Shown: one piece after another, positions 43,346-60,069 of the stretch | Numbering within the stretch: the stretch's first letter is position 1 | Layout of the letters: every line of letters starts with the position of its first letter | NCBI GenBank assembly: GCA_050290185.1 | Contig: JBNKHE010000001.1 | Location: forward strand, 194,713 to 258,712 | DNA length: 64,000 bases | Source of the DNA: Pontiella sp. | Lineage (GTDB): Bacteria > Verrucomicrobiota > Kiritimatiellia > Kiritimatiellales > Pontiellaceae | Reading direction: 5' to 3' | The notes under the pieces: model-generated | Told to the model about the DNA's origin: nothing | The model's database searches: none | Seen by the model: the letters and a program-made list of their open reading frames with translations, nothing else | Translations under genes and position numbers: made by a program

Positions 43346-43852
43346 TCACGCATTTTGTTTTTCAAAGATACCCAGAGCCCATTCGGTGGCATTTTTCAGA
43401 TCGGTTTCATCGGGATGGCCGGCGGCATCCTTCCATAGTTTCTTGCGCGACTCGGTGGGACCATAGCCGTGATCCTTCGGTAGGGCCTCCATCCATTCAA
43501 TCAGTTCCGGATCGATCGCGCCCTGGCAGATGAAATGGCCAATGATTTCACAATCCGGAATAAGTTTGGCCGTGGCATCAAGGCTTTCGGCCGCATGCTT
43601 GGAATCGGGATAGGCACCGAGAGTGGCAAACAGGGCCACCTTCTGCCCCGAGAGCCGTTTCATATAAAGCTGCATATTTTCATCCGCCGTGCCGTTTTCA
43701 ACCCAGAAGCCAAGCAGGATCAAATCGTAGTTGCACGGGTTGGGAGCCATCTCAACGCGACTTAAATCGGCACAAGGAAGTTCCAAGTGAATGGCTTGAG
43801 CCAATTTACGGGTGTTGCCGGTCTTGCTGGAATAGACGATCAAAGTTTTCAT
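43346..43852 (-). CDS. Flavodoxin family protein
   Basis: YSSKTGNTRKLA FMN-binding loop, GFWV, HPDETD. Confidence 0.88.
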   Translation of the reverse strand: MKTLIVYSSKTGNTRKLAQAIHLELPCADLSRVEMAPNPCNYDLILLGFWVENGTADENMQLYMKRLSGQKVALFATLGAYPDSKHAAESLDATAKLIPDCEIIGHFICQGAIDPELIEWMEALPKDHGYGPTESRKKLWKDAAGHPDETDLKNATEWALGIFEKQNA

Positions 43853-44095
43853 TTAGCTACCTCATTGCGTTGAACGCTGATTTGTTTTCAAAGGGTGTGG
43901 TCTCAGCATTCCTGTCTTGAGTCCCGGCGTCAAGGTTCACCTGACCTGAATGCGTGAAAAAACGCCGAAAATACCCCGCGGGTTTAAAAGGATCGGCCCA
44001 AAAGGACCGTCATACGTGCCATTCCGCCGTAAACCAGCATTCCCAGGAAACCGATGCGGATGAATCTTCGTATCCTATACCTAATAATCTGGATT

Positions 44096-44114
44096 TGTGG
44101 GGAATATCCCCACA
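44096..44114. promoter_or_regulatory. 19-bp palindromic operator (copy 1, perfect)
   Basis: TGTGGGGA-ATA-TCCCCACA. Confidence 0.75.
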
Positions 44115-44156
44115 CGCCACGCGACTCGACTAGTGGACCTAACCAAAGGAGACACT

Positions 44157-45341
44157 ATGCGAGTTATACGAAAAGCCGGATGGCTGTTGTTGATCGGAAC
44201 CGGATTGCTCTGGCCACAGCAGGGATGGGGAACGTTCCAGGGAGGAATTCTGGTATATGCATGGGACAGCAGTTCCGGCCTCACCCCTCCCCCCTCGACG
44301 TCCGCCCAACTTGATACCAATTCTAGCCAATCTTTCGGCACCAACAATCTGATAATATTTGATGGCTATTTCGAGGCCGGAACACATGTGGTTGAGGTAT
44401 CGAGCGGATCCCGCGGATATGTTCCTCGCCCAAGCCCCACCGACCCGGATGCCTTGAGCGATCCCTATTCGGCTTATGGAAATCCTCGCTATGTCCATAT
44501 TTCGGAAACCACGAATCTCGTGCCCGTCAGCTTCCAGTTTGACCCGGTGGTTACAGTTTCGGCGGTGGTGCGCGATGCATGGACCATGGAGCGGTTGGCC
44601 GACGCCTCCATCCAGTTCATCTTCGAAGGATCCACCGATAAAATCACTATTACCAAATACCCTTCAACGGCCACGTATGCATCAAACTGGCTCAGCGATG
44701 CATCGGGGAATTTCCCCACAAACACGATACTTTATCTCCACAATTATGACATACGCATGACCAAACCCGGCTACCTGCCGTTCATTGAAGCCAATGTGAT
44801 CAGCAATGCTCAGCCAGGGGATGTCATCGACCTTGGAACGATTTTCATGGAACCCATCGACAACAATACAAATCAGATTGCCGATGTGTGGGAGGCTGAA
44901 TTTTTTGGAACAAACAGCACTGTCACAGCCGAGGTAGACGTCGATGGAGACGGCATATCGAATCTCGGCGAATACATCACCGGAACCGATCCCACCAACC
45001 AACCGAGTTGCCTGCGGGTTGAGACCTCCCTCGCCACGAATGGGCTTTGGCTTACATGGCCCACGGAACCGGATCACACCTACCGCGTCTGCGGCACCAC
45101 GAATCCATGCGCCGACAGCTGGTTGCAGGTGGGGGGGCCGTGGACCGCCACCAACGGCCAATATGAAATGGTCTGGGCGGAAACCAACATGGATCTAAGC
45201 TGGAATAACGCCTATCGCGTGGAAGTCGTTCCATGCTGGTGGCAAGGAACCAACCAGGTGCTGATCAATACCAACATGCCTGTTTTTAAAGGAGGAACCA
45301 ATACGTGGGGAGGAGATCTAGATCTACCGCCGATCCCTTGA
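44157..45341 (+). CDS. Secreted beta-rich protein (carboxypeptidase-regulatory-like domain, DxDGDG motif, C-terminal module)
   Basis: GGAGA RBS, signal peptide, VRDAWT..L..A.I, YDIRMTKPGY, DVDGDGISNLGEYITGTDP. Confidence 0.75.
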   Translation: MRVIRKAGWLLLIGTGLLWPQQGWGTFQGGILVYAWDSSSGLTPPPSTSAQLDTNSSQSFGTNNLIIFDGYFEAGTHVVEVSSGSRGYVPRPSPTDPDALSDPYSAYGNPRYVHISETTNLVPVSFQFDPVVTVSAVVRDAWTMERLADASIQFIFEGSTDKITITKYPSTATYASNWLSDASGNFPTNTILYLHNYDIRMTKPGYLPFIEANVISNAQPGDVIDLGTIFMEPIDNNTNQIADVWEAEFFGTNSTVTAEVDVDGDGISNLGEYITGTDPTNQPSCLRVETSLATNGLWLTWPTEPDHTYRVCGTTNPCADSWLQVGGPWTATNGQYEMVWAETNMDLSWNNAYRVEVVPCWWQGTNQVLINTNMPVFKGGTNTWGGDLDLPPIP

Positions 45342-45387
45342 GGTTAAATCAGCGTATCCGAAAAAGGCCGTATCGGTGCATATGCTA

Positions 45388-45414
45388 TGTGGGGAAACTC
45401 TCCACAAAGCCTTT
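45388..45414 (+). promoter_or_regulatory. Operator copy 2 / 27-bp direct repeat
   Basis: TGTGGGGAAACTCTCCACAAAGCCTTT, identical to 46453-46479. Confidence 0.75.
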
Positions 45415-45491
45415 TGTTCGCAATCTAGTATTTTTTGCTAGATTAGGTGTCCGTTGCAAACGGAGCACCAACGCATACGAAAGGACCTCAA

Positions 45492-45845
45492 ATGGAAGAG
45501 ACATCGAACCGAAAACTTGGCACCCGAAAAGATGGCAGTCTGTTTGATGAAGCAACCATTGAAGCCGTATGGATAAAAGGGGTGCCCGCGCAGGAAGTTG
45601 ACTCGCTCAGGAAAGACAGATACGGAGCATTAATGGCTCGTTCTGAATATGGCGAAACAACACGCCACGGATGGGAAATCGATCATATCATACCGGTTTC
45701 AAAAGGCGGAACAGACAGTCTGTCCAACCTGCAGCCTCTACATTGGGAAAATAATCGTTGCAAGAGCGATAACCTGCTCGATCTGGACCGCGAAGAATCC
45801 CGTATTCCACACGATACGCATGGTACAGACCGGCCATCATCATAA
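45492..45845 (+). CDS. Small HNH endonuclease family protein
   Basis: WEIDHIIPVSKGG.D.LSNLQPLHWENNR.K; ATG 45492 after AAGGA. Confidence 0.88.
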   Translation: MEETSNRKLGTRKDGSLFDEATIEAVWIKGVPAQEVDSLRKDRYGALMARSEYGETTRHGWEIDHIIPVSKGGTDSLSNLQPLHWENNRCKSDNLLDLDREESRIPHDTHGTDRPSS

Positions 45846-45901
45846 ACAACAAAACCACGCCGTTAGATAAATATTTCAGGGATTGGGATGCTAACAGACA
45901 A

Positions 45902-46432
45902 ATGAACTTCCACGAATCAAGACTCTTAAGAATACGCCCCTTTCGGCAGGCATTGGCTGAGATTTTAATGGCGACGTTTGATCAAATGTCGGATGAAGAA
46001 TGGCTGAATTTCAGGCAACAGCAACTTGTTTTTTTTCAATCCTCCATCCCTCCCAAATCAAGCGAAACACTGAAGAACAAGTGGGATCGAGTGGTTCCCG
46101 CCGGGTGTATCAGCGTCATCAATGCGCAATCGGAATATGTCAGCGCAACGGTCGAAGCAATGATTGAAATAGCGGTTGGGACCCACACATCCAAGTTCAA
46201 TATACCGCTTTCGATTCTGTTGAAAACCACGAGATCCTCCCTTGCAAAAGACGCGGCTGCCCTCCCTCGCAATATCTTCAAGATTGGCATTCATACCATG
46301 GTGCTCACGCGGCTGGCTGCACATGCGCTCGTCCATGAAATACAGGTTGCGTTGACCTCCACGCAAAAGTCCAGGCCCAAGCGACTGGAGGTGGTATTTT
46401 GTATTCTTCCTCCGGAAGTCCTCAATGCATGA
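45902..46432 (+). CDS. Hypothetical protein
   Basis: 176-aa ORF filling the gap; no recognisable motif. Confidence 0.5.
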   Translation: MNFHESRLLRIRPFRQALAEILMATFDQMSDEEWLNFRQQQLVFFQSSIPPKSSETLKNKWDRVVPAGCISVINAQSEYVSATVEAMIEIAVGTHTSKFNIPLSILLKTTRSSLAKDAAALPRNIFKIGIHTMVLTRLAAHALVHEIQVALTSTQKSRPKRLEVVFCILPPEVLNA

Positions 46433-46452
46433 TACCGGTCGTGGCACCCTTT

Positions 46453-46479
46453 TGTGGGGAAACTCTCCACAAAGCCTTT
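46453..46479 (+). promoter_or_regulatory. Operator copy 3 / 27-bp direct repeat
   Basis: Identical to 45388-45414. Confidence 0.75.
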
Positions 46480-46582
46480 GCTTCACCATTGCCAGAAACA
46501 CGTTAGACTCATTCGCATCATTTTACGGCACAGTCAGTAGCTTTCCGGGGATTCGTGTCCCCTTGAAATGGAGAAGGAATAG

Positions 46583-46891
46583 ATGGGACCATTGATGTAC
46601 AGACACCGACCGTACTACACGGCACTGATTGCCGCGGCCGTCGTTCTGGTGTTTGGTATGTGCGTGAGTTGCTGCCTGAAGAATCGGGTTGAGATCGGAG
46701 AGGCCAACCGTTCGACCGTAGCCTTGGTTATCTGTCTGACGGCCGCGATCTCCGGCGCTTTGGTGATCTCCGCCTTTGCCCGCTACACATTCACCCACCT
46801 CTGGAAAACACCCGATCCCGCCTTCGCGAAAAAAAAGCGGCAAAAAGGACGCAGACCGGGATACAACAAACCAGGTCGGGTAGATTCCTGA
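46583..46891 (+). CDS. Small two-TM protein with basic tail
   Basis: AAGGA RBS, two hydrophobic segments, KKKRQKGRR tail. Confidence 0.6.
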   Translation: MGPLMYRHRPYYTALIAAAVVLVFGMCVSCCLKNRVEIGEANRSTVALVICLTAAISGALVISAFARYTFTHLWKTPDPAFAKKKRQKGRRPGYNKPGRVDS

Positions 46892-46913
46892 CAGACATAA
46901 CCACGCACCGGTT

Positions 46914-48656
46914 TTAAAAATGCCAAATCGCTGAAACGAAGAGCTGGTGCTTGGTGACGTCGGAACGGACGGCTTGTCCTGCCAGGAGTGAGTCCCTGAC
47001 GTTGTTGCCTTGCTCAAAGATGTAGGCCACATCCAAAATGGTCTTTCCGGTTTCCTTACCGAGCGAGATCCCTGAACCGAGGCTGAAGCCCCAGTATTCG
47101 TCCGGCGCTCCAACAGCTGGGCGCTGCTCCCAGAACATGCCTCCGCGCAGCGGGATTTCCGTCTGCGACAGCACACACACATACTCACCTCCGAGGCGGA
47201 TGGACCAACAGTCGTCCAGCATTGAGGAGGAATGGGGTTCGCCGTTGACGGGATTTATGCGCGCTTCGCCTTCCGCCTTGTAGCTGTACTCCGACCAATA
47301 CGTTCGGCTAGTATCCATGGAGATATAGAGCCGATCGCTCCAGCGCCACAGGGCACCGACCGACCAGTAGAGCGGGAAGGTATATTCCACATCGCGTGTC
47401 TGGGCATCCCGAAACACGGTGTTGGCCACCTGGACCAGATTGCTATCGAACGTGGAAACCTGATGATCGACTCGCTTGGTCTGCTTGCCATAGCCCGTCC
47501 ATGGCAGATCGACCGTTGCGCCAATCGTCAGCTTTTCGCTAGCGGCCCAGAGCGCACCGAGAGTGGCATTGATGCCATGAAAATCTTCCGTATCATTATC
47601 CTCACGGTATATACCTGCAACCGTATAGGCATCTACCTGCACGTTGGTTTGCACATCGGAAAACGTGTTGGTTACCGTTTCTTCTGGAACAGGAATCGTA
47701 ATTGGATCGGACGGATCACCGGTGTATCGCTCTCCGGAATAGGTATTTACCGCCGTCGAACTGCGTGTGGTAGTGATGTCGGAAATGCTGTCGGACGAGC
47801 CCGAGTATTCCGCAACGAGTGTGGACTCAATCGGATTTCCGCGGCTGGCTCCGTCGGTATAGAGGTTGACTGCGATCCCGAGTGAAAACTGCGGCGTAAC
47901 ATCAAGAGCAAAGGCCGGAGATAATGCATCGATGGTTCCCTCCTGCCTAAAATCGATGCTGGAAAGCAGCGTGGAATTAAGCACTTGATGGATATCGCTT
48001 CGCGCCGCTGTCGTGACATCGGCCACAATTGTCAGGCTCTGGTTGACATCGCTATAATACAGGTTCGTGGACTGAACGAAGGTTTGGTTGATATTGGTGT
48101 CGATATTCTGACTGGCCTGCCCGCTGAAACGGGCCGTAAATTCATAGGTATAATCATAGGCTTCCTGATAGTTGAGGGAAACCACGGCATTGCGGTCGTT
48201 CAGGAGAAATGGATAGACGGCGCTGAGATAGTTGAGTTCGCTACTGGCATAACCATCATCTCCGGATTCCAGTGCACTGGTTTGGGATTCGTGGGCATCT
48301 TTCTCCGCCGAAAAGCGATAGACCGCCGAAACCTCCGGGAATTCAAGCTGCACGAGGCCTGCCGGATTCCACGAAGCGGCCGTCGCATCGTCGGCGACAG
48401 CCGTGAACGCTCCGGCCTGCCCGAGCGCACGCGCACCGGAACCGACCGGGAGCGGTGCGGCGAAAATGGTTGGAGGACGGAAGCCGGCATTGGCCGGCGG
48501 ATCAGGCTCCTCCAGTTGCCCCGTCGGTCCGGCATGGCTGATGTCCAATTCAACCGCTCCCCCCGGCGTCACGATCACCACAGGCACCGCGCGCAGCGCG
48601 CTGGAAAACGCGATGCTGGCAGCAAAAATGACGAAGGATATACGGAACTGCTTCAT
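46914..48656 (-). CDS. Outer-membrane beta-barrel, OmpP1/FadL/PorV-like
   Basis: Signal peptide from ATG 48656; GSGARALGQAGAFTAVADDATAASWNPAGL; C-terminal W-H-F. Confidence 0.85.
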   Translation of the reverse strand: MKQFRISFVIFAASIAFSSALRAVPVVIVTPGGAVELDISHAGPTGQLEEPDPPANAGFRPPTIFAAPLPVGSGARALGQAGAFTAVADDATAASWNPAGLVQLEFPEVSAVYRFSAEKDAHESQTSALESGDDGYASSELNYLSAVYPFLLNDRNAVVSLNYQEAYDYTYEFTARFSGQASQNIDTNINQTFVQSTNLYYSDVNQSLTIVADVTTAARSDIHQVLNSTLLSSIDFRQEGTIDALSPAFALDVTPQFSLGIAVNLYTDGASRGNPIESTLVAEYSGSSDSISDITTTRSSTAVNTYSGERYTGDPSDPITIPVPEETVTNTFSDVQTNVQVDAYTVAGIYREDNDTEDFHGINATLGALWAASEKLTIGATVDLPWTGYGKQTKRVDHQVSTFDSNLVQVANTVFRDAQTRDVEYTFPLYWSVGALWRWSDRLYISMDTSRTYWSEYSYKAEGEARINPVNGEPHSSSMLDDCWSIRLGGEYVCVLSQTEIPLRGGMFWEQRPAVGAPDEYWGFSLGSGISLGKETGKTILDVAYIFEQGNNVRDSLLAGQAVRSDVTKHQLFVSAIWHF

Positions 48657-48658
48657 AT

Positions 48659-48745
48659 TGCGGGGGAATCTACCACAATCGAAGCCGCCCCCAAACGTAC
48701 GAAACATCGGAAAGTCGTTGATTTTTTGTAGGGGATTCCCCCACA
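48659..48745. promoter_or_regulatory. Two operator copies in the barrel/sigma divergent spacer
   Basis: TGCGGGGG-AAT-CTACCACA (48659-48677) and TGTAGGGG-ATT-CCCCCACA (48727-48745). Confidence 0.65.
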
Positions 48746-48863
48746 TTTTCTGCGCGGAAAAAGAATATACTTTCATCGCAACACTGCCATAATTGCTTTG
48801 GTTCTATGTGAATTTAGACGTCCTCTGGTGAGAGCCCAACCAACGAAAAGCTAGACAGTTTGT

Positions 48864-49478
48864 ATGTATAAGATCCATCCAGATTCTGATCAGGAAATCA
48901 TCGATGCGATACGCGGAAAAAATCGCCTCGGGTGGGAGCTTTTGTTCGCCCGGTACGATCCGCTCATTCAATCCATCGCACGATGGCCCAAATGGAATTT
49001 GTCGGAAGACGAGCAACAGGATGTCTGTCAAAACATCCACATGCATCTCCAGACCGCCCTGCCGACCTTCAGGCAGCAAAGCTCGCTCTCATGGTTTATC
49101 AAGAAAATCGCCATGCGCCAATGCGTCAACGAAATTCGGCGGCAGAAGCGCTGGCGAACCGTCATGACACCATCCATGCAGAAAACGACCGACGGAAACT
49201 GGAATGAGATGGAGTTTGCGTCTACCCCAGACAACGACCCCTATAACGAAGCCGTCCAGCACGAACGACAACGACTCCTCGAGTCAGCCCTGCAGCATTT
49301 ACAGCAGACCTGCAAAGACAGCATCCGCATGTTTTATCTGCAACACCTCTCCTACCGGGAAATGTCCGAACAACTTGGAATAGCCGTTAATACCGTCGGC
49401 AGTCGGCTCTCCAAATGTCTCGACAAACTTCATCACGAACTCCGGCAACATCCATCGTTCGAAAGGGCTGAGCAATGA
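48864..49478 (+). CDS. ECF sigma-70 factor
   Basis: QDVCQNI region 2; SYREMSEQLGIAVNTVGSRLSKCLDKL region 4. Confidence 0.9.
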   Translation: MYKIHPDSDQEIIDAIRGKNRLGWELLFARYDPLIQSIARWPKWNLSEDEQQDVCQNIHMHLQTALPTFRQQSSLSWFIKKIAMRQCVNEIRRQKRWRTVMTPSMQKTTDGNWNEMEFASTPDNDPYNEAVQHERQRLLESALQHLQQTCKDSIRMFYLQHLSYREMSEQLGIAVNTVGSRLSKCLDKLHHELRQHPSFERAEQ

Positions 49479-50185
49479 GTGATATAACAACTCTGATCTG
49501 GGCATATCTCCACGACGAACTGTCCCCGGAGAGCAGGAACCATTTTGAAAGTGCGCTGGAGGATAGTCCGAGTCTGCGCAAAGCCCTTGAAGAACAGCGG
49601 GCAACGCACGAAGAGCTAAAAAGCATCCTGCCCCTCATCGAGGCCGAAACAGCAAACGATGAGCAACAGGAAGAACAGTTGATCGCTGAATGGGAAGCGG
49701 AACATCCGGAATTCGCCGAACCGCCGCAGCAGCAAAAGTCCCAAGGCCGAATCATGCGCTTCGCGATACCACTCGCCGTTGCGGCTGCGGCGTGCGTGGT
49801 ACTGCTCGCCCTCCCCGGACATCAGGGCCCGGTCTACTGGCAGAACACGCTTTATGGTACCGCCCCGCAGTTGCGCGGCGAATCCGCAGCCCATCCGCGC
49901 TACAACCAAACCGAACTCGAGCAGGTCAGCCGGCAGCTGCAAAACATTATTGAAGACCACATCGCAAGGCTTCCCGACTCTGCCGAACCGTGGAAGCTCA
50001 AGATTCACCTGCAGGAACTGGCCGGAGGTTATCTGGCCGTAGAAGTCTCCGGACACCCCGCAAACCGGCCGAAACGCTCTCGGACATGGGATGCAACCTT
50101 CCAGGGGAAGGATCGTTTCGATGCAGAGGCTTCCGGGTTCGGCAAACGCATCGCCAACGATCTCGCGGAACAGGACGTACCATGA
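49475..50185 (+). CDS. Putative single-pass anti-sigma factor
   Basis: ATGA-coupled to the sigma gene. LIWAYLHDELSPE.R..FE..L anti-sigma-like start, central TM helix, periplasmic C-domain beginning with LRGE. Confidence 0.75.
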   Translation: MSDITTLIWAYLHDELSPESRNHFESALEDSPSLRKALEEQRATHEELKSILPLIEAETANDEQQEEQLIAEWEAEHPEFAEPPQQQKSQGRIMRFAIPLAVAAAACVVLLALPGHQGPVYWQNTLYGTAPQLRGESAAHPRYNQTELEQVSRQLQNIIEDHIARLPDSAEPWKLKIHLQELAGGYLAVEVSGHPANRPKRSRTWDATFQGKDRFDAEASGFGKRIANDLAEQDVP

Positions 50186-52083
50186 TTCGTAAAGTGCGGC
50201 TTCGATCCGGATTGCTGATCGCCGCAATGGCCCTTGTGTTCTCCGGCTGCACGTCCATTCGGAGCTACCGCAGCGCCGATCCCTACGTGATCACCCATCA
50301 TACCTGGTGGAACCATTACCAGCGCGGTCGCCTCCTGCTGCAAGAAGGAAACTATGCCGCAGCCCGCAAAGATTTCGAAATCGCCCTAGGACGGGTTCCG
50401 GGCGCGCGCTATCCCTATGCCCAGGAACGATGGCGCGCGCGCACCTACGGCATGCATATGATCGAGGGCTACTTCCCGCATCGGGAACTCGGAATCTGCC
50501 TGTTTGAAATGGATGAGCCCGCAGAAGCGTTGACCCTCTTGGAAACCTCCATGAAATTGGAACCCTCTGCTCGTGCAAAATTCTATATCAACCGCACCCA
50601 CGCAAAACTTGCCGAGGCCGCGGCACCTCCCCCCGTCATCGCGATCGATCCCCTCCCGGACTGGACCGGACAGAGGAACTACATCCTGCAGGGAACCGCC
50701 CTGGGATCAAACCGGATAGCCCGTCTCCGCATCAATGGCGAGCCGGAATTCATCGAACTGGCCACCCATCTGGTCCGTTTCCGAAAAAGCATCCCGCTCA
50801 CGGAGGGACACAATTCGATCCACATCGACGCCGAAGATATCTCCGGCAAACAGACCTCGACCAATCTGGTGCTGAGGGCCGACTGGACGCCTCCGCAAAT
50901 CTACCTCAGCCGCAACGGCACGGACCTTGTCATTACCTGCCGGGACAACCTCGGCCTCCATCAGTTGCAAACCGGCAACCGCACTCTATCCACCGACGGA
51001 ACGGAGTATACGTTTACCCAGCCGATCCTGCCGGACCAGCCCATTCGACTGACCGCCACCGATTGGGCCGGAAACAAAACCGACTGGGCGCTGTCTGAAA
51101 AAGAACTGCTGCATCTGGCCAGACGCACCGAAGCCGGACCGCCACGGGTACAAATCGACAATGCCGGAAAGAACCTCGTACTCTTCAATCCGGAATACAG
51201 CATGGATATTCGAGTGGATGATGATGTTGCGTTGAAATCGGTTGAACTCAACGGCGAAAGCTTGTTATCACGCACCACGCCCCTGTTCCGAACCCTTCGC
51301 CGCATTCCGCTTGTACCGGGCACCAACAATCTGGTCGTGATCGCCGAGGATTTTGATGGCAACCGAACGGAGAAGCGCGTCAGTGTAATTTACCGCAACC
51401 CCGAATATCTCGACCGAATCTACCGCCTCGCCGCCATGTGCTCGCCTCTTTCCGGCGAAATATCCGATCCGGCAATGGCACTACGGATCGATCACCTGAT
51501 CGAGAACACCCTGACCAGGGACCCGGTTCGATTCTACCTGCTCGCTCCAGATAACGAAACCCGGCAACTGCAAAGCGAACAGACCCTCTCGAATAGCGCC
51601 CTGGCCGACCCGCGCGCATTATTGAAAGCCGGTAAACTGCTGGATGCCGACTTGCTCTTTGCAACCCGGATATTGAGCGATGCCCCCGGGCAGACCGTTT
51701 ATACGCAGGTGCTGGACGCCCATAGCGGAGAGGAGCTGTTCATCGAGGATGTTTACGTGGAGAACCCCGATCGCTGGCCAGAGCAGTTGGATGGGCTGGT
51801 CATGAAGATTGAGCAACGTTTCCCGCTCATCCAAGGACGTGTACATACGTCGGGAAGCAGGCTGGTCATCAATGCCGGGGAGCGGAATGGCGCACAAAAG
51901 GGCATGCGGATGCTCGTGATCCGCTCCCAGGGATCCTTCGAACAGGGCCGCGTGGTCATGGACTCAAAGCGTCCGGTGGAACTCGTTATTTCCAGGGTTG
52001 CGTCCCAAACCTCCGAGGTTATAATGCCTCACGGACAACCCAGAGACTCTGTTCATGCGGGAGACTATGTTTTTTCAAGATGA
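50182..52083 (+). CDS. Lipoprotein with TPR, Ig-like repeats and CsgG/FlgT-like C-terminus
   Basis: FSGC lipobox; TPR (HYQRGRLLLQEGNYAAA); IPL..G.N.I...AED..G Ig-like units; LAD......GKLLDADLL; INAG..NG...G. Confidence 0.75.
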   Translation: MIRKVRLRSGLLIAAMALVFSGCTSIRSYRSADPYVITHHTWWNHYQRGRLLLQEGNYAAARKDFEIALGRVPGARYPYAQERWRARTYGMHMIEGYFPHRELGICLFEMDEPAEALTLLETSMKLEPSARAKFYINRTHAKLAEAAAPPPVIAIDPLPDWTGQRNYILQGTALGSNRIARLRINGEPEFIELATHLVRFRKSIPLTEGHNSIHIDAEDISGKQTSTNLVLRADWTPPQIYLSRNGTDLVITCRDNLGLHQLQTGNRTLSTDGTEYTFTQPILPDQPIRLTATDWAGNKTDWALSEKELLHLARRTEAGPPRVQIDNAGKNLVLFNPEYSMDIRVDDDVALKSVELNGESLLSRTTPLFRTLRRIPLVPGTNNLVVIAEDFDGNRTEKRVSVIYRNPEYLDRIYRLAAMCSPLSGEISDPAMALRIDHLIENTLTRDPVRFYLLAPDNETRQLQSEQTLSNSALADPRALLKAGKLLDADLLFATRILSDAPGQTVYTQVLDAHSGEELFIEDVYVENPDRWPEQLDGLVMKIEQRFPLIQGRVHTSGSRLVINAGERNGAQKGMRMLVIRSQGSFEQGRVVMDSKRPVELVISRVASQTSEVIMPHGQPRDSVHAGDYVFSR

Positions 52084-53720
52084 AATCGTACTTCCAGCCC
52101 ATTCTGCTTAGTGCCGTCGTATTGATGGTCGCGGCCTGCGGCCACAAGGAGCCAGAGACATCGCTGCAGAAAACCGGTCCGTCAACAGACCAGCCGCTTA
52201 ATTATTATGCGTTGGTGATCGGTGTCAGCGATTACTCGAGCACCGGCTGGCCGAATCTGGGAACCGCAGGCGATGACGCCAAGGCCATGGGCTCCGTTCT
52301 GCGAGACCGTTATGGCTTTAACGTCACGGAATTGACGGACAAGCAGGCAACCCGGGGGAATATCCTGCGTGCACTTGATCGGTTTATGCAGCTGACGGCC
52401 AACGATGCACTGCTCATCTATTTTGCCGGCCACGGCTATTACGACAAGCAGATGGACGAGGGCTACTGGATCCCATATGGCGCCAAGCGGCAGCGGATGG
52501 ACCAGCCAGCCAAGGAAGATTGGCTCTGGAACAGCAGCATCAACCGGGTGCTCGGCGCCCTGCCGGCCAGACATGTCTTGCTGGTCGCCGATACCTGCTA
52601 CGGCGGATCGCTTTTCCGGGGGGACGACAATCCCGACAAGTCCGGAAACTGGTACCGGCGCGCCATGTCGGTTCCGTCGCGCTACCTCATCACCAGCGGC
52701 AATCTGGAACCGGTGCTCGACAGCGGTATTCGCCATAGCGTCTTTGCACAGCAAATCCTCAACTACCTCCAATACACCGATGAGGATGTCTTTTCGGCAT
52801 CGGATATCGCCATATCCATCCGCTCCAAAGTGAGCGAGCTGACGGGACAGCTCGTGCGCATGGGCCCGTTGGCCTCCCCGGCCAATGCCGGTGGGGAATT
52901 TGTATTTGTTCGCGGTGAAACCGCATTGCCGCCGATCGAACCCGCTTCCGAAACAGCACCACAGATCACATCATTCAGCAGCACCGGAACACGCGGAGCG
53001 CTTGAGGATCTGGCCAACCAGATGGAACGCTATTCCAGCAAGGCATCAGACGACAGCTTTGTCCGTCCCCGCGTTCTCGCCTGCCTCGGACCAACCGGAG
53101 ACAATCCCGAAGAAACGGCGATGGTGCGCAATCGATTGTACGAGAGTCTGGATACAATCGGGGGATGCATCCTGGTTGAACGCGAAGCCTTCGACACCCT
53201 CCTGCAAGAAATGGAACTGGGGCAATCAAGGTTGGCCGACAAACGAGCCACGACCGAAATCGGAAAACTGCTTCCTGCCAGTCTGATTCTGTTCGGGGAA
53301 ATCATTCCCGTGGGCAACCGACAGGAAATCCACATCCGGATTGTCGATACCGAAACCTCGCGCGTACTCAGCTCCACTTCCGCGATGTTCACAAGCTACG
53401 ATGAACTGGAGGCCACCTGCCAGAAACTCGCCCGGCAGATCATGACGACCGTGAATCAGGCGCGCCCGGTATTGCTGGAGGCAAACGTTACGGACAACGG
53501 AACACTGCAAGCCGGATGGGGCCGATTCCACGGAGCCCACATCGGCGACACGTTCAAGATCATCACACGCGAGGCCGTCGGAACCATTTCCCAACGGGAT
53601 GTCCTGCTGGGAACAGCCCGTCTTCTTTCGCTGGGCGAAGAAACCGCCGAGTTCCAACCGGAATGGCGCAACTCCGAAACCAACCAGCCGGCTAGCCTGT
53701 GGCTGAAAGCAACGCTGTAA
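52080..53720 (+). CDS. Caspase-like (peptidase C14) lipoprotein with CsgG/FlgT-like C-terminus
   Basis: VAAC lipobox; YALVIG..DY, YFAGHG (catalytic His), VADTCYGG (catalytic Cys), HSVF; LVERE..D.LLQE.ELGQS...IGKLL.A. Confidence 0.88.
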   Translation: MKSYFQPILLSAVVLMVAACGHKEPETSLQKTGPSTDQPLNYYALVIGVSDYSSTGWPNLGTAGDDAKAMGSVLRDRYGFNVTELTDKQATRGNILRALDRFMQLTANDALLIYFAGHGYYDKQMDEGYWIPYGAKRQRMDQPAKEDWLWNSSINRVLGALPARHVLLVADTCYGGSLFRGDDNPDKSGNWYRRAMSVPSRYLITSGNLEPVLDSGIRHSVFAQQILNYLQYTDEDVFSASDIAISIRSKVSELTGQLVRMGPLASPANAGGEFVFVRGETALPPIEPASETAPQITSFSSTGTRGALEDLANQMERYSSKASDDSFVRPRVLACLGPTGDNPEETAMVRNRLYESLDTIGGCILVEREAFDTLLQEMELGQSRLADKRATTEIGKLLPASLILFGEIIPVGNRQEIHIRIVDTETSRVLSSTSAMFTSYDELEATCQKLARQIMTTVNQARPVLLEANVTDNGTLQAGWGRFHGAHIGDTFKIITREAVGTISQRDVLLGTARLLSLGEETAEFQPEWRNSETNQPASLWLKATL

Positions 53721-54384
53721 CAACCTCTTCGTCCGGACCCACGAGGCCCCGCATGGCCGCATGACGCATAAAGCTGGTTGCGGCGTATTGAAAATCCGCG
53801 CCTGTACTGAAATCCATCTTTGCCCGGATGCGTTCCCGGAAGCTTTCCACCGTCTTAACGCTTACGTTCATCATTGCGGCAATGCGTTGTGGAACATACC
53901 CACATCCCGTGAGGCAGAAAACCTCGGCCTCCCGCTTCGAAAGTTGCAACAGGCCTTCCTGTGTTACTTGCTCCTGCCGACGTAACTCACTCAAATACAG
54001 CATCTTCTTTCGGGCAGAACGAATGGCATCAACAAGATCCTTCATCGAATCCTGCGGAGTCACGTATCCGTCCGCTTCGGCTTGCAGGGCTTGCCCCAGA
54101 TCGGAGCTCTCAAACTCCGGGTCCCACGAAAGCGCCACAATGCTCAACCCGCAATAATCGCTTTTCAATTGCTGCAGCGAGGATATCCCGGCACTGCTCA
54201 ACGAAACATTCATGACCAGAACATGTGGCTTTTGCAGCTCGATCAAAGCCCTCACATCATCAATCCCGGATGCGATCCCGCACACATCAATACACGACTC
54301 CTGCTTTAGCCGCTCTACCATCATTCCACGCATCAGGCCATACTCATGGGCAACCACGACCCGAATCTTCTCATTCCGCACCAT
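53692..54384 (-). CDS. NarL/LuxR-family response regulator with degenerate receiver domain
   Basis: CAGGAGG RBS; LSKREAEVF..IA..MNVSVKTVESFRERI HTH; receiver lacks the canonical Asp and Lys residues. Confidence 0.88.
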   Translation of the reverse strand: MVRNEKIRVVVAHEYGLMRGMMVERLKQESCIDVCGIASGIDDVRALIELQKPHVLVMNVSLSSAGISSLQQLKSDYCGLSIVALSWDPEFESSDLGQALQAEADGYVTPQDSMKDLVDAIRSARKKMLYLSELRRQEQVTQEGLLQLSKREAEVFCLTGCGYVPQRIAAMMNVSVKTVESFRERIRAKMDFSTGADFQYAATSFMRHAAMRGLVGPDEEVVTALLSATG

Positions 54385-54439
54385 AACAACCTCCTGGTTC
54401 GATTTTACATAAGTGTTTGTCTCACCAGTCGGATGTGTA

Positions 54440-54528
54440 TGTAGGAATCTTCCCCACAAAATTAAAAAAAGGGGAAAATCCCCCACAACCAATCCCAATT
54501 AAACCTCAAGTTGGATTTTTCCCTTACA
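54440..54528. promoter_or_regulatory. Cluster of 2-3 operator copies upstream of the regulator
   Basis: TGTAGGAA-TCT-TCCCCACA (54440-58), AAGGGGAA-AAT-CCCCCACA (54469-87), GTTGGATT-TTT-CCCTTACA (54510-28, half-match). Confidence 0.65.
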
Positions 54529-54963
54529 GAATGGGTACGAAAACTTCCCCGGGAGCTGGTCGGCTCGGGGTGATAGCAATGAAAACCGGTTCTCCGTTTG
54601 GTTCGCAACTGGTTTCAGGTATCCTTTCCGGATAGCGATGCGAGTGGAGAGTGAACGGAGAATATGCCGCGATGCGACGGTGTTACGTGACCAGTTTTAG
54701 GGATGGAGAAAACGGGAAAGCCTGCATTTATTGGCGAAAACGGGTGGTATAATGAAAGAGCGAACCTCCGAAGAAGTTCGCTGAGCGTCGGAGACGAGAA
54801 GTCGTCGGTCTCCGCTTGCGCCAGAGGCGCGGCCCGGCGTGAACCTGTTCGCGTCACAGGAAAAAGAGGAAGAAAAGAGATAAAACAGGTGTTTCCGCAT
54901 GAGCCCCATCCGTAGCACGTTCCTTATTATCAGTATATCTTACCATTGATATCGTGGTGTTCC

Positions 54964-56529: not shown

Positions 56530-59433
56530 TTAATGGCCTTCGATCTTGAAGAATTCCTGGCTCGAAGAAGCTGGCACCGATACGGAGGTCGTCGTGCCGA
56601 CTCCCGTAATTCCATTCGTGACCTCCGTCCAGGTCGAAGCCTTCAGACTGGTCTTGTGCATAATCCTGTAGGAGATACCATACTCCGAATCCCACCTCAA
56701 GGAAGCCATGCCTCCGGAGATCACCATCGTCTGGATATCAGGAGAAACCCCAGGTCCATCGGCTCGCCTCACGAGCTGGTACGCACTGCTGTAGCTGGAC
56801 CCGAATTCGATCATGCCACTCGCATCGGGCGTGACCTCTGCGATAACCGCATAGTTCGTGCCCAGTACATAGTTGGTGGGATTTGCCACGAGCGCAGCCC
56901 GGTCCAGAGCGATCGTGGCATCCGGCATATTCGCGGTGCCGGCCGTAAGGCTGAATGTCTTCGTATCATCGCCGCGGTTCCACGTCCAATAGATGTAGAC
57001 ATCGTAGGCGGCATTGGTATCCAACCCGGTAAACCGTGTCCAACCGTTGTCATTGTCGCCAATGGTAGCTCCCCAGATCGTGTTGGAAAGCGCGGTGAAT
57101 TCGTCGTAGTACCCTGCCCACGACGCGGGGCCATCGTCCCAGGTGCTAACACCAACTTCAAAACCGACCGTGTTCGTGTTGGATTCGTTTGCGGCAGACA
57201 ACTGCACCAGCCCGGGAACCACCCATTTATTCCCTGTGGAAAAGTAGTTGTACCACGTACCGATTCCACCGGTAGTCGGAGCAACCAGCACAATTCCATC
57301 CGCTACCGATCCAGAGCCCTCAAACCCTGCCATATTGACGTTGTACAGCTCCAGGGCAGCGGCTGCAGGAGTCGCGAAATGATCGAACCAGTAGAACGAC
57401 CACTCGTTGGTGTGGGAGTACGTCAACCCGTCCGTCAAACCGTAACCACTCGTAATCATCATGACCGTTTGCAGCCCGTTGGAAAGCGCGGTTGCGCCGT
57501 AGCTGACCGTGTTGGTGTCCGACAATCCGTACAGCGACGATTCGGAGGCTACAAGGTCGCCGTTCAGGTACAGCTCCATGGAATCGACTCCAGCGTCAAC
57601 ATTGTACATGGTACCGGAAATATCGACCACATCGTTGGTAAAACGCGATCCCTCCGCAGGAATCATCTCCCCTTCGGCATATGGGACAAAAAAGGAAACC
57701 GGCACGTCCGAGCGCTTCACAATCTGCATGCCGGACCATCCGCCGTCGCTGTTCTGGCTTCTAACCTGGATCACACCGTTCGAACTGGGAACAACGTCGG
57801 CGAAGACCGCATAGTTCTGGCCTTCCACGAGATTCGAATAGGAACCGGCATTGGCCTGCACCGGCGTAACCGTCGCGGATGGCAACGGCGCCATTCCCTC
57901 GGTAACCGTGAAGGTCGACATGCTCGTGGTCCACCCCCACGTGAAGTAGCAATAGATGTCGTAGGTGGCGTTCGTATCGAGCCCGCTGATGACCATGTTG
58001 CCGTCGAACCCGCCGGAACCGAGATAGCCATTGAACAACCCTGCGTAGCCAAATCCACCGTTGCTCCAGTCGTGTGCCGTACCGGACCACGTCAGGCTGA
58101 TCGTGTTCGTGCCGTACGCATTGTTGATCGTGAGCGGCGAAGCCGGAGTCCACGATTCCCAGCCATTCACGGTGGGCGCGACCAGATTGTTCCAACGGTC
58201 GCTGGAGGTGAGCGCTGGAGCCTTGACCACGGTCCCGTCGGGCACTGTCATGTTAGAGCCAGTGCGGCCGGCATAGTTGATATTGTACAGCTCAGATGCA
58301 TACAGAGCGGGTTCTGGAACGGTATCGATGAAAGTAAATGACCATACGTTGGTAAAATACTGGAGATCCGTTGTCGTCGTGACGACCATTCCGGTGTGCG
58401 TACCGGCGGCAATCGAAGAACCGTCGTAGGTTACAATGGCCGAGGCAGCCCCCGGAGCGACATTGGTGGTTGCAACAGAAGCGCCGTCGACATAGAGATC
58501 CAGAGTATCGATGGTCAGCCCAAAGGGATACATGGTAGCCGAGACGATGCGGTTGGTGGTCGAGTCCCCATCGGCAGGAACAACTGGACCCTCAGCAACC
58601 GGGAACTGCAAAACGAAACCAGCCGGAACCAGCGTTTCGTCGGAAATGGCCACCGCATCGATCTTGCCACTGTATCCGTCGCTTTTGCTACCCTGCCACA
58701 TGCCCCGGCAAACGGACCAGTCGCCTCCGTTCCAGGTGTGTGCCTGATCAGCACCCGTACCCGTGCCGGAATCGAGTTCCAACCCGGCATTCGACATGGT
58801 ATTCGACGCAATCAATTGGCCATCAAGGTAGAGTAAAAGATTACTATCATCCGCCGTTGCCGCGAGATGATGCCACTGGTCTGCGTTGATTTCCACCGCA
58901 TCCGGTCCGGTCACTTCCGTCTGCACGCCCGACACGTCTCTCCATAGAACCTGCGGACGGCCCTGGTCGTTCAGGAGCAAGCGAAAGGAAGGCGCGTCTG
59001 CCACGTTTCCTGCGCGACATACCAAAACGTCCCACTGATGGGATTCCACCGTGAACACCGACTCGACCGTGAGGGTGACCGGTGTGATGGTACGGATATC
59101 GACGCCCGAGGGCACCGTGTTGCTCACCGTACGCAGATCTTCCCAATCCCACGAGCCTACTCCGACTCCCAGGATGCTCCAGTCGCCGAAATAGCTGTTT
59201 GTGTTCGACCATATTTCCTTCCCAGCACTCCCGTCGGTCCACAGGCTCAGATCGTTTCCGTTTCCGGATTTATCGGTTGCGGACACCACGAAGGCATCAT
59301 TTGTCGTATAAGGAAGGCTTACCCCATTCGCCGCAAAGATATCGTCGAAATCCCACAGCGCTATCGTCGACGCCATGGCACTGCTGCCGATGGCAAGCAA
59401 CCCCAGTAATAACCACTTTAGTTTCATTTTCAT
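56530..59433 (-). CDS. Secreted LamG/ConA-like domain protein with duplicated internal modules
   Basis: GAGGAG RBS, signal peptide, WHHLAAT...LYLDG...G.IDAVAIS, two similar Ig-like+beta modules, C-terminal module. Confidence 0.8.
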   Translation of the reverse strand: MKMKLKWLLLGLLAIGSSAMASTIALWDFDDIFAANGVSLPYTTNDAFVVSATDKSGNGNDLSLWTDGSAGKEIWSNTNSYFGDWSILGVGVGSWDWEDLRTVSNTVPSGVDIRTITPVTLTVESVFTVESHQWDVLVCRAGNVADAPSFRLLLNDQGRPQVLWRDVSGVQTEVTGPDAVEINADQWHHLAATADDSNLLLYLDGQLIASNTMSNAGLELDSGTGTGADQAHTWNGGDWSVCRGMWQGSKSDGYSGKIDAVAISDETLVPAGFVLQFPVAEGPVVPADGDSTTNRIVSATMYPFGLTIDTLDLYVDGASVATTNVAPGAASAIVTYDGSSIAAGTHTGMVVTTTTDLQYFTNVWSFTFIDTVPEPALYASELYNINYAGRTGSNMTVPDGTVVKAPALTSSDRWNNLVAPTVNGWESWTPASPLTINNAYGTNTISLTWSGTAHDWSNGGFGYAGLFNGYLGSGGFDGNMVISGLDTNATYDIYCYFTWGWTTSMSTFTVTEGMAPLPSATVTPVQANAGSYSNLVEGQNYAVFADVVPSSNGVIQVRSQNSDGGWSGMQIVKRSDVPVSFFVPYAEGEMIPAEGSRFTNDVVDISGTMYNVDAGVDSMELYLNGDLVASESSLYGLSDTNTVSYGATALSNGLQTVMMITSGYGLTDGLTYSHTNEWSFYWFDHFATPAAAALELYNVNMAGFEGSGSVADGIVLVAPTTGGIGTWYNYFSTGNKWVVPGLVQLSAANESNTNTVGFEVGVSTWDDGPASWAGYYDEFTALSNTIWGATIGDNDNGWTRFTGLDTNAAYDVYIYWTWNRGDDTKTFSLTAGTANMPDATIALDRAALVANPTNYVLGTNYAVIAEVTPDASGMIEFGSSYSSAYQLVRRADGPGVSPDIQTMVISGGMASLRWDSEYGISYRIMHKTSLKASTWTEVTNGITGVGTTTSVSVPASSSQEFFKIEGH

Positions 59434-60069
59434 CTCCTCTAGCCATTCATCGTTGATCGGCATGGGTACGCACCCAAGGACACCGTTCCCAACGACAATC
59501 CTCCAATACGGAACCAGCCTTAGCCTTCTCGCATTTGTACCCATATTAATCATATTGATCCCTCTCGCAATCAGCACTATTGAATGGCCAATATACGATT
59601 ATGAAACTACCTTTGCGGCCTAACTGAATAAGGGATAGTGCTTTACTCGCATGCACATAATTCTGAAGAAGCGGACGCGCCAACCAGACGACCTGGTTTC
59701 GAATGCATATTGAAAAAGTGTAGCGTCTGCCACGCCTTCGCATTCCGCGATCTCTTTGGCAACCTTATCGTCAAGGCAAGGGCGAAATTCGATACAGTCC
59801 TGCGGCATGTAGCGGAATCGGCTGACTGAATTCTCTCTCAAAAGCACCGACATTCATTTGTGCCCACAGGTCGCGAACCGAGGCCTTGCCCCAGATTCCC
59901 AGATCCTTGTAATCGCCGGCGACCCTGCTGCGTTCCGGCTTCAGGTGTTTTTTGGGCGATTATCGACCGTACGGTTCTTTCTCACCGGATGAGGCCAGTT
60001 CCCGGTCGAGGTCTGTCAGCTTCAGTATTCCTGCCGGGCCGGAAACCGTCGGATCGATCCAGACTGCGC

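Follow-up and report, generated by a model that had tools for sequence, protein, structure and literature searches.

The 64,000-nucleotide stretch of Pontiella sp. DNA analysed here (the window) carries a real and conserved modular system, probably one of envelope signalling, that has apparently not been described before. Its genes encode an outer-membrane barrel of the FadL family, a sigma factor of the extracytoplasmic function (ECF) type, a single-pass anti-sigma factor, a lipoprotein with tetratricopeptide repeats (TPR) and an immunoglobulin (Ig)-like stalk (hereafter the anchor), a second lipoprotein with a caspase-like protease domain (hereafter the caspase) and a secreted protein. According to the reading that we favour, to which we would give a probability of about 0.58, the barrel, the anchor and the caspase would form a trans-envelope relay in which the caspase cuts the anti-sigma factor after Arg134 and so frees the ECF sigma factor. 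The comparative evidence, drawn from the sequences of related loci, points to the anti-sigma factor as the substrate of the caspase. To judge from gene content, other phyla couple this chassis to CHAT, cyclase, kinase or TIR outputs. The components are the following.

44157-45341, forward strand: secreted protein, 394 aa (profile of its module and neighbour conservation)
46914-48656, reverse strand, open reading frame (ORF) extendable to 48776: FadL-family outer-membrane barrel (Toluene_X match and structure model)
48864-49478, forward strand: ECF sigma factor with regions 2 and 4, 204 aa (TIGR02937)
49475-50185, forward strand: single-pass anti-sigma factor, 236 aa (marginal zf-HC2 match, one helix)
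49874-49876, forward strand: codon of Arg134 of the anti-sigma factor, predicted cleavage site (column conservation)
50182-52083, forward strand: TPR/Ig anchor lipoprotein, 633 aa, lipobox Cys23 (TPR_2, Glucodextran_B, conserved Cys)
52080-53720, forward strand: caspase-like (C14B-type) lipoprotein, 546 aa, lipobox Cys20 (Peptidase_C14 and CsgG)
52431-52433 and 52596-52598, forward strand: codons of the caspase catalytic residues His118 and Cys173

The first-pass annotation of the window had described five of these genes, and all five ORFs lie where it had placed them, the sigma-to-caspase genes on the forward strand and the barrel gene divergent on the reverse strand. The four forward-strand genes are coupled by ATGA overlaps (49475-49478, 50182-50185 and 52080-52083), as it had also noted. 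The five genes do belong to the system; a sixth, the secreted-protein gene at 44157-45341, lies to the left of the range then considered and had been missed.

Distribution of the locus and its outer-membrane arm

The proposal that these genes belong together is borne out by their neighbourhoods and by their distribution, since they co-occur far beyond chance. In one draw of 201 Kiritimatiellae genomes, the anchor was found in 17 genomes from 12 genera (the system genomes), and the other components are nested on this set. The barrel subfamily was detected in 18 genomes (all 17 and one more), the caspase-CsgG profile in 22, including all 17 (the five extra genomes match one part of the profile only), and the anti-sigma factor in 16, all of them among the 17. 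The five genes are syntenic in 7/7 close loci. The Pontiella genome holds one copy of each, and some genomes of the class carry two to four copies. In the phylum, the anchor profile was matched in 14 of 401 genomes, one match being partial. Close homologues of the locus genes carry the labels Kiritimatiellales and Pontiellaceae; anchor homologues are labelled Kiritimatiellales, Desulfobacterales and Magnetoovum.

A metagenome scan confirmed 553 related stretches, of which the best 80 were used. The census of loci comprises 95 distinct loci among the 105 whose anchor passed a motif filter; it omits L103 and L142, which both carry the system, as well as partners more than 7 kb away (L063). Its flags for a soluble-type anti-sigma factor at L071 and L090 stem from a shared zinc finger, L071 being of the membrane type and L090 being cut by a contig end. 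Where at least 4 kb of sequence is available on either flank (30 distinct loci), the barrel is present in 26, a partner with the CsgG-FlgT module in 28 and a sigma factor in 19; the barrel remains next to the anchor across many changes of gene order. One genome (G316, loci L143 and L144) contains several broken copies of the system, with nine matches to the module of the secreted protein and many in-frame stops.

The barrel matches Pfam Toluene_X/FadL (PF03349) with 39.5 bits against a cut-off of 29.7, and its model (pLDDT 87) has the FadL/OMPP1 fold, including the N-terminal hatch. Since its homologues are about 580 aa long, the protein probably starts at 48656 rather than at 48776. The earlier designation of a FadL/PorV-like barrel holds better for its first half: the model is closer to FadL (Z 36, rmsd 3.4, 376 residues aligned) and BamG (Z 34) than to PorV (Z 26), and the sequence falls below the family cut-offs for both BamG (51.7 versus 250) and PorV_fam (35 versus 90). 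Two long hairpin extensions are predicted by the model at mature residues 160-201 and 265-313; both are missing from 37 shorter barrels of the same alignment. According to the available text of PMC12611786, the FadL-family protein BamG holds a surface lipoprotein in place by means of an extracellular pillar, which shows that the fold can dock proteins on extended strands.

The secreted protein would be a surface partner for these hairpins. In it, a system-specific module of about 200 aa (residues 29-232, 44241-44852) is followed by a TSP3 repeat and, at the C-terminus, by a domain of a generic kind. For the module, NCBIfam gave no match and the PDB weak and partial ones only; its second half weakly resembles a carboxypeptidase-regulatory Ig fold. 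A single copy is present in the Pontiella genome. In close relatives the secreted protein is kept beside the barrel; at distant loci, residues 29-232 recur in far larger secreted proteins, mostly near their C-termini, and the module-bearing proteins of relatives contain large and variable adhesin or enzyme domains. The module was matched in 18 of the 201 class genomes, namely all 17 system genomes and one partial match; the alignment contained sequences from 12 of the 17, so that G116, G437, G441, G442 and G469 were matched independently. In the phylum it was matched in 13 of 401 genomes, and in the two extra genomes with the module, a fragment of the barrel lies on its contig. It is present in one genome with a long barrel and went undetected in two whose barrel is short, a pattern consistent with binding of the module to the elongated barrel. 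The generic C-terminal domain occurs in 6-42 copies in 5/5 genomes without the system, which makes it likely that export is independent of the barrel.

At two loci, L056 (3799-7863) and L088 (2-3097), a BNR/sortilin passenger, a CFI-box-CTERM domain and the barrel lie within one ORF. An autotransporter-like fusion of passenger and barrel was considered and then reconsidered; as the CFI-box-CTERM domain and a signal-like stretch separate the two parts, this may be a read-through arrangement. Legumain-like C13 peptidase domains, which belong to a further family of clan CD, are present in large secreted neighbours at L026 and L132 (by eye also at L046 and L081).

The two lipoproteins, the anti-sigma factor and a candidate cleavage site

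Both lipoproteins end in related modules, as had been proposed from the window alone; the profile-profile comparison gives a probability of 99.9 (E 4.6e-33 over 210 columns). The anchor consists of a conserved TPR domain, an Ig-like stalk and a module composed of a CsgG/TolB_N-like and a FlgT_C part. In the Pfam/NCBIfam scan of the window proteins, TPR_2 and Glucodextran_B scored above their cut-offs and FlgT_C below (24.6 bits, cut-off 27). The lipobox Cys of the anchor is at least 90% conserved in 79 rows, and an Atlas search with the TPR domain returned generic TPR clusters only. In the caspase, Peptidase_C14 (PF00656) reaches 60 bits (cut-off 21.4) and CsgG 29.8 bits (cut-off 20.8). The CsgG/FlgT-like fold that had been predicted for the C-termini was recovered by modelling: for the caspase module (pLDDT 87), Foldseek ranks FlgT first (E 3e-11), and of the high-ranking matches FlgT alone covers both module domains (Z 10.5, rmsd 8.7, 195 aligned), TolB_N, PelC and CsgG being tied on the first. 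The modules comprise the equivalents of the middle (TolB_N-like) and C-terminal beta-barrel domains of FlgT; the N-domain of FlgT is absent, the N-termini being TPR-Ig or C14, and flagellar families are not recurrent among the neighbours. The 139-residue model of the CsgG-like domain (131 of 206 CsgG residues aligned, rmsd 6.1) has short strands and turns in place of the CsgG pore hairpins. At L046 the TPR-Ig part of the anchor, a C14 domain and one CsgG-FlgT module are fused in a single protein, which argues for a joint function of the two lipoproteins.

The catalytic dyad of the caspase had been described as intact, and His118 and Cys173 indeed proved invariant in 22/22 aligned caspases, as did Asp66, Asp171 and the Arg180-Gly181 pair that follows the catalytic Cys. 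Among proteins of solved structure, GSU0716, metacaspases and MALT1 are closest to the caspase. In non-metazoan caspase homologues, two Asp and a Ser form a pocket that binds Arg or Lys (available text of PMC9626678 and PMC6426788). Asp66 and Asp171 align with the metacaspase pocket motifs, and the enzyme may thus keep a pocket of the Arg/Lys type.

The position of the caspase in the envelope bears directly on its possible substrate. In the 29 of 31 sequences in which a motif located the caspase domain, it starts 10-41 residues past the most hydrophobic stretch (which at L046 is no real anchor), and orthologues carry it 25-41 residues past a transmembrane helix, some of them behind a cytoplasmic kinase or TIR domain. 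An inner-membrane location of the caspase is therefore more likely than one at the barrel, which the first-pass annotation had given as possible. Inner-membrane anchoring is clear for the kinase-helix and TIR-helix forms and uncertain for the lipoprotein of the window. If the latter is anchored there too, the helix spacings would set caspase and Arg134 about equally far from the inner membrane.

The sigma factor scores 84.7 bits with TIGR02937 (sigma70-ECF, cut-off 42.9), consists of regions 2 and 4 only in about 200 aa, as expected of an ECF protein, and clusters with the sigma factors of other C14 loci (tree support 90/93). Immediately downstream, the anti-sigma factor is indeed a single-pass protein, one helix being predicted in each of 25 profile hits. 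It combines a zinc-less anti-sigma-like N-terminus, a helix at residues ~95-112 and a periplasmic domain without a known family. The zf-HC2 match is marginal (25.1 bits, cut-off 22.2) and NF052375 lies below its cut-off (E 8.5e-9); the His/Cys zinc ligands of zf-HC2 are absent from the window protein and its orthologues and present in a soluble type of anti-sigma factor. No FecR match was obtained at E 0.1, and no CHAT domain is found in the 236 aa. That the periplasmic domain might have a CsgG-like fold was considered and is not claimed (probability 5.6%, no Atlas hit). At L155 (11794-13209, reverse strand), sigma factor and membrane anti-sigma factor form one ORF of 471 aa; the caspase ORF of this locus has no CsgG module.

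Arg134 is the sole invariant periplasmic column of the anti-sigma factor (20/20 rows, including 10/10 divergent rows of <35% identity). It stands in an Arg-Gly motif about 20 residues beyond the membrane, 18-24 residues after the helix. Its equivalent is present in 10 of 11 sequences held out of the alignment, L147 having been dropped from this set as a duplicate of L023. The sole held-out anti-sigma factor without the Arg, that of L159, adjoins a caspase that has also lost its own Arg-Gly. Furthermore, six soluble anti-sigma factors whose C-terminal part is unrelated to the membrane type also have an invariant Arg. Three stand-alone exported proteins, at L157 (5713-6324), L158 (5285-5839) and L156 (10519-11508), correspond to the periplasmic domain and retain Arg-Gly; they are possible decoys or partners.

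Exchangeable outputs, the proposed relay and its alternatives

Across the loci, the barrel, the TPR lipoprotein and a CsgG-FlgT partner form, as far as their sequences tell, the constant core, and the caspase with the sigma pair is one of several outputs. The N-terminal part of the partner may be a C14 domain (behind a lipobox or signal anchor, or as kinase-helix-C14 or TIR-helix-C14), or else cyclase-CHAT-helix-TPR, cyclase-TIR-CHAT, a cyclase alone, a kinase or a TIR domain. The CHAT dyad is intact in 21/21 sequences and the cyclase domains retain their acidic motifs. The CsgG-FlgT module may hence be the docking unit that couples the outer-membrane arm to an inner-membrane effector.

The output appears to vary in a regular manner. 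An exported C14 partner goes with a sigma factor and a membrane anti-sigma factor in 19/19 distinct loci; in the kinase-helix-C14 and TIR-helix-C14 forms, the protease comes to lie immediately outside the inner membrane. Conversely, among 19 loci in which CHAT precedes the membrane helix of the partner and is thus cytoplasmic, a sigma factor together with a soluble zf-HC2 protein is present at five, and the membrane type at none. At L071 a secreted TPR-CHAT protein is paired with a membrane anti-sigma factor of the DUF4384 type, and L090 is alike up to its contig end; the sigma factors of both nest among those of the soluble type (support 94/99). Protease compartment and anti-sigma type would therefore seem to change together. 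This co-variation is suggestive rather than statistical, because it reflects about three lineages and not 40 independent cases. Kinase-only partners occur near a sigma factor at L139 and L142, where the anti-sigma factor was not found. In CHAT partners (e.g. L064, L068, L077), the linker from CHAT to the membrane helix often contains Arg-Gly or Arg-Ser, a possible self-release site. At L023/L147 (5507-6253) the genes that come after that of the caspase encode a DUF4384 protein and a membrane cyclase.

In the relay that we propose, the secreted protein would dock through its dedicated module on the elongated outer hairpins of the barrel, with which it is observed to co-occur. The TPR lipoprotein would hang from the outer membrane beside the barrel, its Ig stalk spanning the periplasm, and its FlgT-like module would co-assemble with the homologous module, of the same fold, in a caspase tethered at the inner membrane. 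By analogy with the behaviour of clan CD enzymes, clustering might activate the protease, perhaps with self-cleavage at Arg180. A cut after Arg134 could then expose the anti-sigma factor to an RseP-type protease, and an M50 protease scoring above the cut-off is indeed encoded elsewhere in the genome. The likeliest targets of the released sigma factor would be secreted surface proteins, which would create a feedback loop.

Several observations weigh against this scheme. The Ser of the metacaspase pocket is replaced by Ala in the caspase, as judged by alignment only. The residue after its lipobox Cys is Gly, and Asp, the inner-membrane retention signal of E. coli lipoproteins, occupies this place in 6 of 11 lipobox-type orthologues. 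Since the signal peptide of several orthologues appears to be cleavable, anchoring of the caspase is not universal. The frequency of Arg-Gly after the helix, which in itself speaks for the site (24/30 anti-sigma factors against 3/106 unrelated single-pass proteins of the Pontiella genome), was obtained with unequal windows of 22 residues for the former and 12 for the latter. In the soluble anti-sigma factors the Arg is just one of 14 invariant columns in 6 rows only. No sigma pair is found at 14 of the 19 CHAT loci, several of which end at contig ends, and at L027, L097 and L098 it is missing despite at least 5 kb on both sides. Finally, no ECF promoter motif was detected in the aligned intergenic regions.

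Two further points of this kind would fit a relay whose main caspase target is not the anti-sigma factor. Since the stand-alone copies at L157 and L158 keep the motif, Arg-Gly could be a structural or binding site; and two genomes, G441 (an assembly 91% complete) and G524, combine barrel and anchor with a C14 partner and the module, but no anti-sigma factor of this family occurs anywhere in their assemblies. The periplasmic domain might then sense the scaffold directly, Arg134 being a binding residue, while housekeeping proteases free the sigma factor and the caspase cuts itself or another envelope protein; the weak likeness of this domain to the CsgG-like fold would permit such docking. This seems rather unlikely, given that protease compartment and anti-sigma type shift together in three arrangements and that the Arg recurs in an unrelated soluble family. 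The genomes that keep the caspase without the anti-sigma factor would also suit a role in surface display or sorting, in which the barrel anchors or shuttles module proteins in the manner of PorV or BamG, the lipoproteins act as a periplasmic scaffold, the caspase matures cargo and the sigma pair controls expression only. The pillar-anchored lipoprotein of BamG, the large secreted proteins flanking many loci, the association of the module with long-hairpin barrels and the single-ORF arrangement at L056 and L088 all speak for it. We nevertheless consider it quite unlikely: the C-terminal domain of the cargo abounds in genomes without the system, the CsgG-like domain is modelled without pore-forming hairpins, and partner enzymes that are cytoplasmic in other lineages (cyclase, CHAT, kinase, TIR) suggest signalling and not cargo processing.

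The remaining alternatives concern the purpose of the system and the nature of its barrel. Variable surface proteins could sense phages, predators or competitors, the outputs triggering defence genes or cell death. Caspase, CHAT, TIR, cyclase and kinase outputs are typical of conflict systems, the distribution is patchy with paralogues and broken copies, and the caspase/sigma pairs characterised so far are defensive. PADLOC contributes a generic caspase match, which is its only match among eight proteins, and no defence family recurs among the neighbours (613 flanking ORFs). An immune role is thus unlikely, and it would in any case be compatible with the relay mechanism. That the barrel merely transports hydrophobic solutes as FadL proteins ordinarily do, with neighbours that are unrelated or just co-regulated, is very improbable in spite of its best structural matches, which are to FadL, the fatty-acid transporter names in databases and its divergent transcription. 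Its subfamily is virtually restricted to the system genomes, it stays beside the anchor, and gene families of lipid or aromatic catabolism do not recur in its vicinity.

As regards the surroundings of the locus, an HNH endonuclease gene and two small ORFs without an assigned family lie at 45447-46891, between the secreted-protein gene and the barrel gene; a 176-aa ORF in this interval is shared with L021. Convergent with the caspase gene is the gene of a NarL/LuxR-type response regulator (53692-54498, reverse strand), whose position is kept in close relatives only. A 1015-aa secreted laminin-G protein is encoded at 56530-59577 (reverse strand), and L021 has a homologue near its locus. In the interval 48657-48863, a palindrome of ~19 bp directly upstream of the barrel start is conserved in 10 aligned close sequences and recurs upstream of the secreted-protein gene (44157) in some relatives; it may be an operator, perhaps for the neighbouring LuxR-type regulator. 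Inverted repeats resembling it lie near 46460 and 54475. Across 43800-54600, sigma-70-like sites (5 versus 7.4) and terminators (13 versus 12.4) are at chance level.

Comparison with known systems

The FecA/FecR/FecI and DegS/RseA/RseP systems link an outer-membrane or periplasmic input to an ECF sigma factor through a membrane anti-sigma factor and regulated proteolysis, and the same sequence of events is proposed here. In contrast to FecA, the barrel is of the FadL type and not TonB-dependent, and the anti-sigma factor has no FecR domain; in contrast to both systems, the operon encodes a cysteine protease of the caspase type and two intervening FlgT-like proteins. The shared tail of the latter has the same alpha/beta fold as FlgT, CsgG, PelC and the N-domain of TolB, and FlgT also has the small beta-barrel that follows. 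CsgG forms a ring, and the titles of the structure entries present FlgT, CsgG and PelC as ring-forming envelope proteins. Here, by contrast, the FlgT N-domain, the pore hairpins and any flagellar or curli context are lacking, and the tail is borne by signalling enzymes.

BamG-BamH of the Bacteroidota BAM complex (available text of PMC12611786) and PorV likewise use a FadL-fold barrel with extended extracellular strands as a protein-docking platform; the window barrel lies far below the cut-offs of these families, its locus is patchy and not universal, and neither BamA nor type IX secretion genes are recurrent in the loci. A parallel for the proteolytic step is DdvS/DdvA of Myxococcus xanthus, where an ECF sigma factor is held by a single-pass anti-sigma factor and a periplasmic caspase-fold (CHAT) protease has been proposed as the site-1 cutter ahead of RseP (available text of PMC11506125). 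In DdvA the TPR-CHAT part is fused to the anti-sigma factor and self-cleavage is itself a proposal, whereas the present protease is a lipoprotein of its own, of the C14B type, with links to a FlgT-like module, to another lipoprotein, to a barrel and to a secreted partner. In the type III-E craspase, Csx29 cleaves the anti-sigma factor Csx30 and relieves an ECF sigma factor (available text of PMC10028731; bioRxiv 2022.08.17.504292). The order of caspase-fold protease, anti-sigma factor and ECF sigma factor, demonstrated for craspase, is predicted here, and some Csx30 C-termini are DUF4384 domains, as in the anti-sigma factor of L071. A barrel, lipoproteins and FlgT-like modules are absent from both the DdvA system and craspase. 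Craspase, however, is cytoplasmic, triggered by RNA, dependent on Cas7-11 and of the CHAT family, whereas the present trigger would come through the envelope; no Cas7-11 or CRISPR component was seen among the eight PADLOC-scanned proteins or the recurring neighbours, no genome-wide search having been made. The Caspase/EACC2 loci also combine a caspase and an ECF sigma factor in one predicted bacterial conflict system, but the main text of that report, as available, mentions neither CsgG nor lipoproteins nor the outer membrane (PMC8195603). Likewise, the available main text of the ECF reclassification names no CHAT, caspase or CsgG (PMC7826278); its supplements may describe the sigma group. In line with the first-pass annotation, which had not recognised the system as a characterised one, no description was found in the literature, mostly that outside subscription journals.

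For most caspase-like proteases of bacteria, neither a substrate nor a trigger is known. Since the locus names an enzyme, a candidate site (Arg134), a sigma readout and a likely activating scaffold, the question is here directly testable. If our reading is true, a caspase would act as a periplasmic site-1 protease, as so far only proposed for DdvA, FadL-fold barrels would gain a receptor role, and FlgT/CsgG-like domains would gain a role as signalling scaffolds. The swap between a periplasmic C14 protease with a membrane anti-sigma factor and a cytoplasmic CHAT protease with a soluble one would amount to a natural experiment in modular signalling. It is tempting to speculate, albeit tentatively and with the odds rather against it, that this is a third general class of trans-envelope signalling beside the TonB-dependent and two-component ones. 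Variable surface proteins would plug into a FadL-fold receptor, and a periplasmic FlgT-like ring would serve, like death-fold scaffolds, as a platform recruiting interchangeable effectors, the Kiritimatiellae caspase being the dedicated site-1 protease of the anti-sigma factor. Compared with the systems above, the logic from protease to anti-sigma factor to ECF sigma factor is a familiar one; the novelty lies in the hardware.

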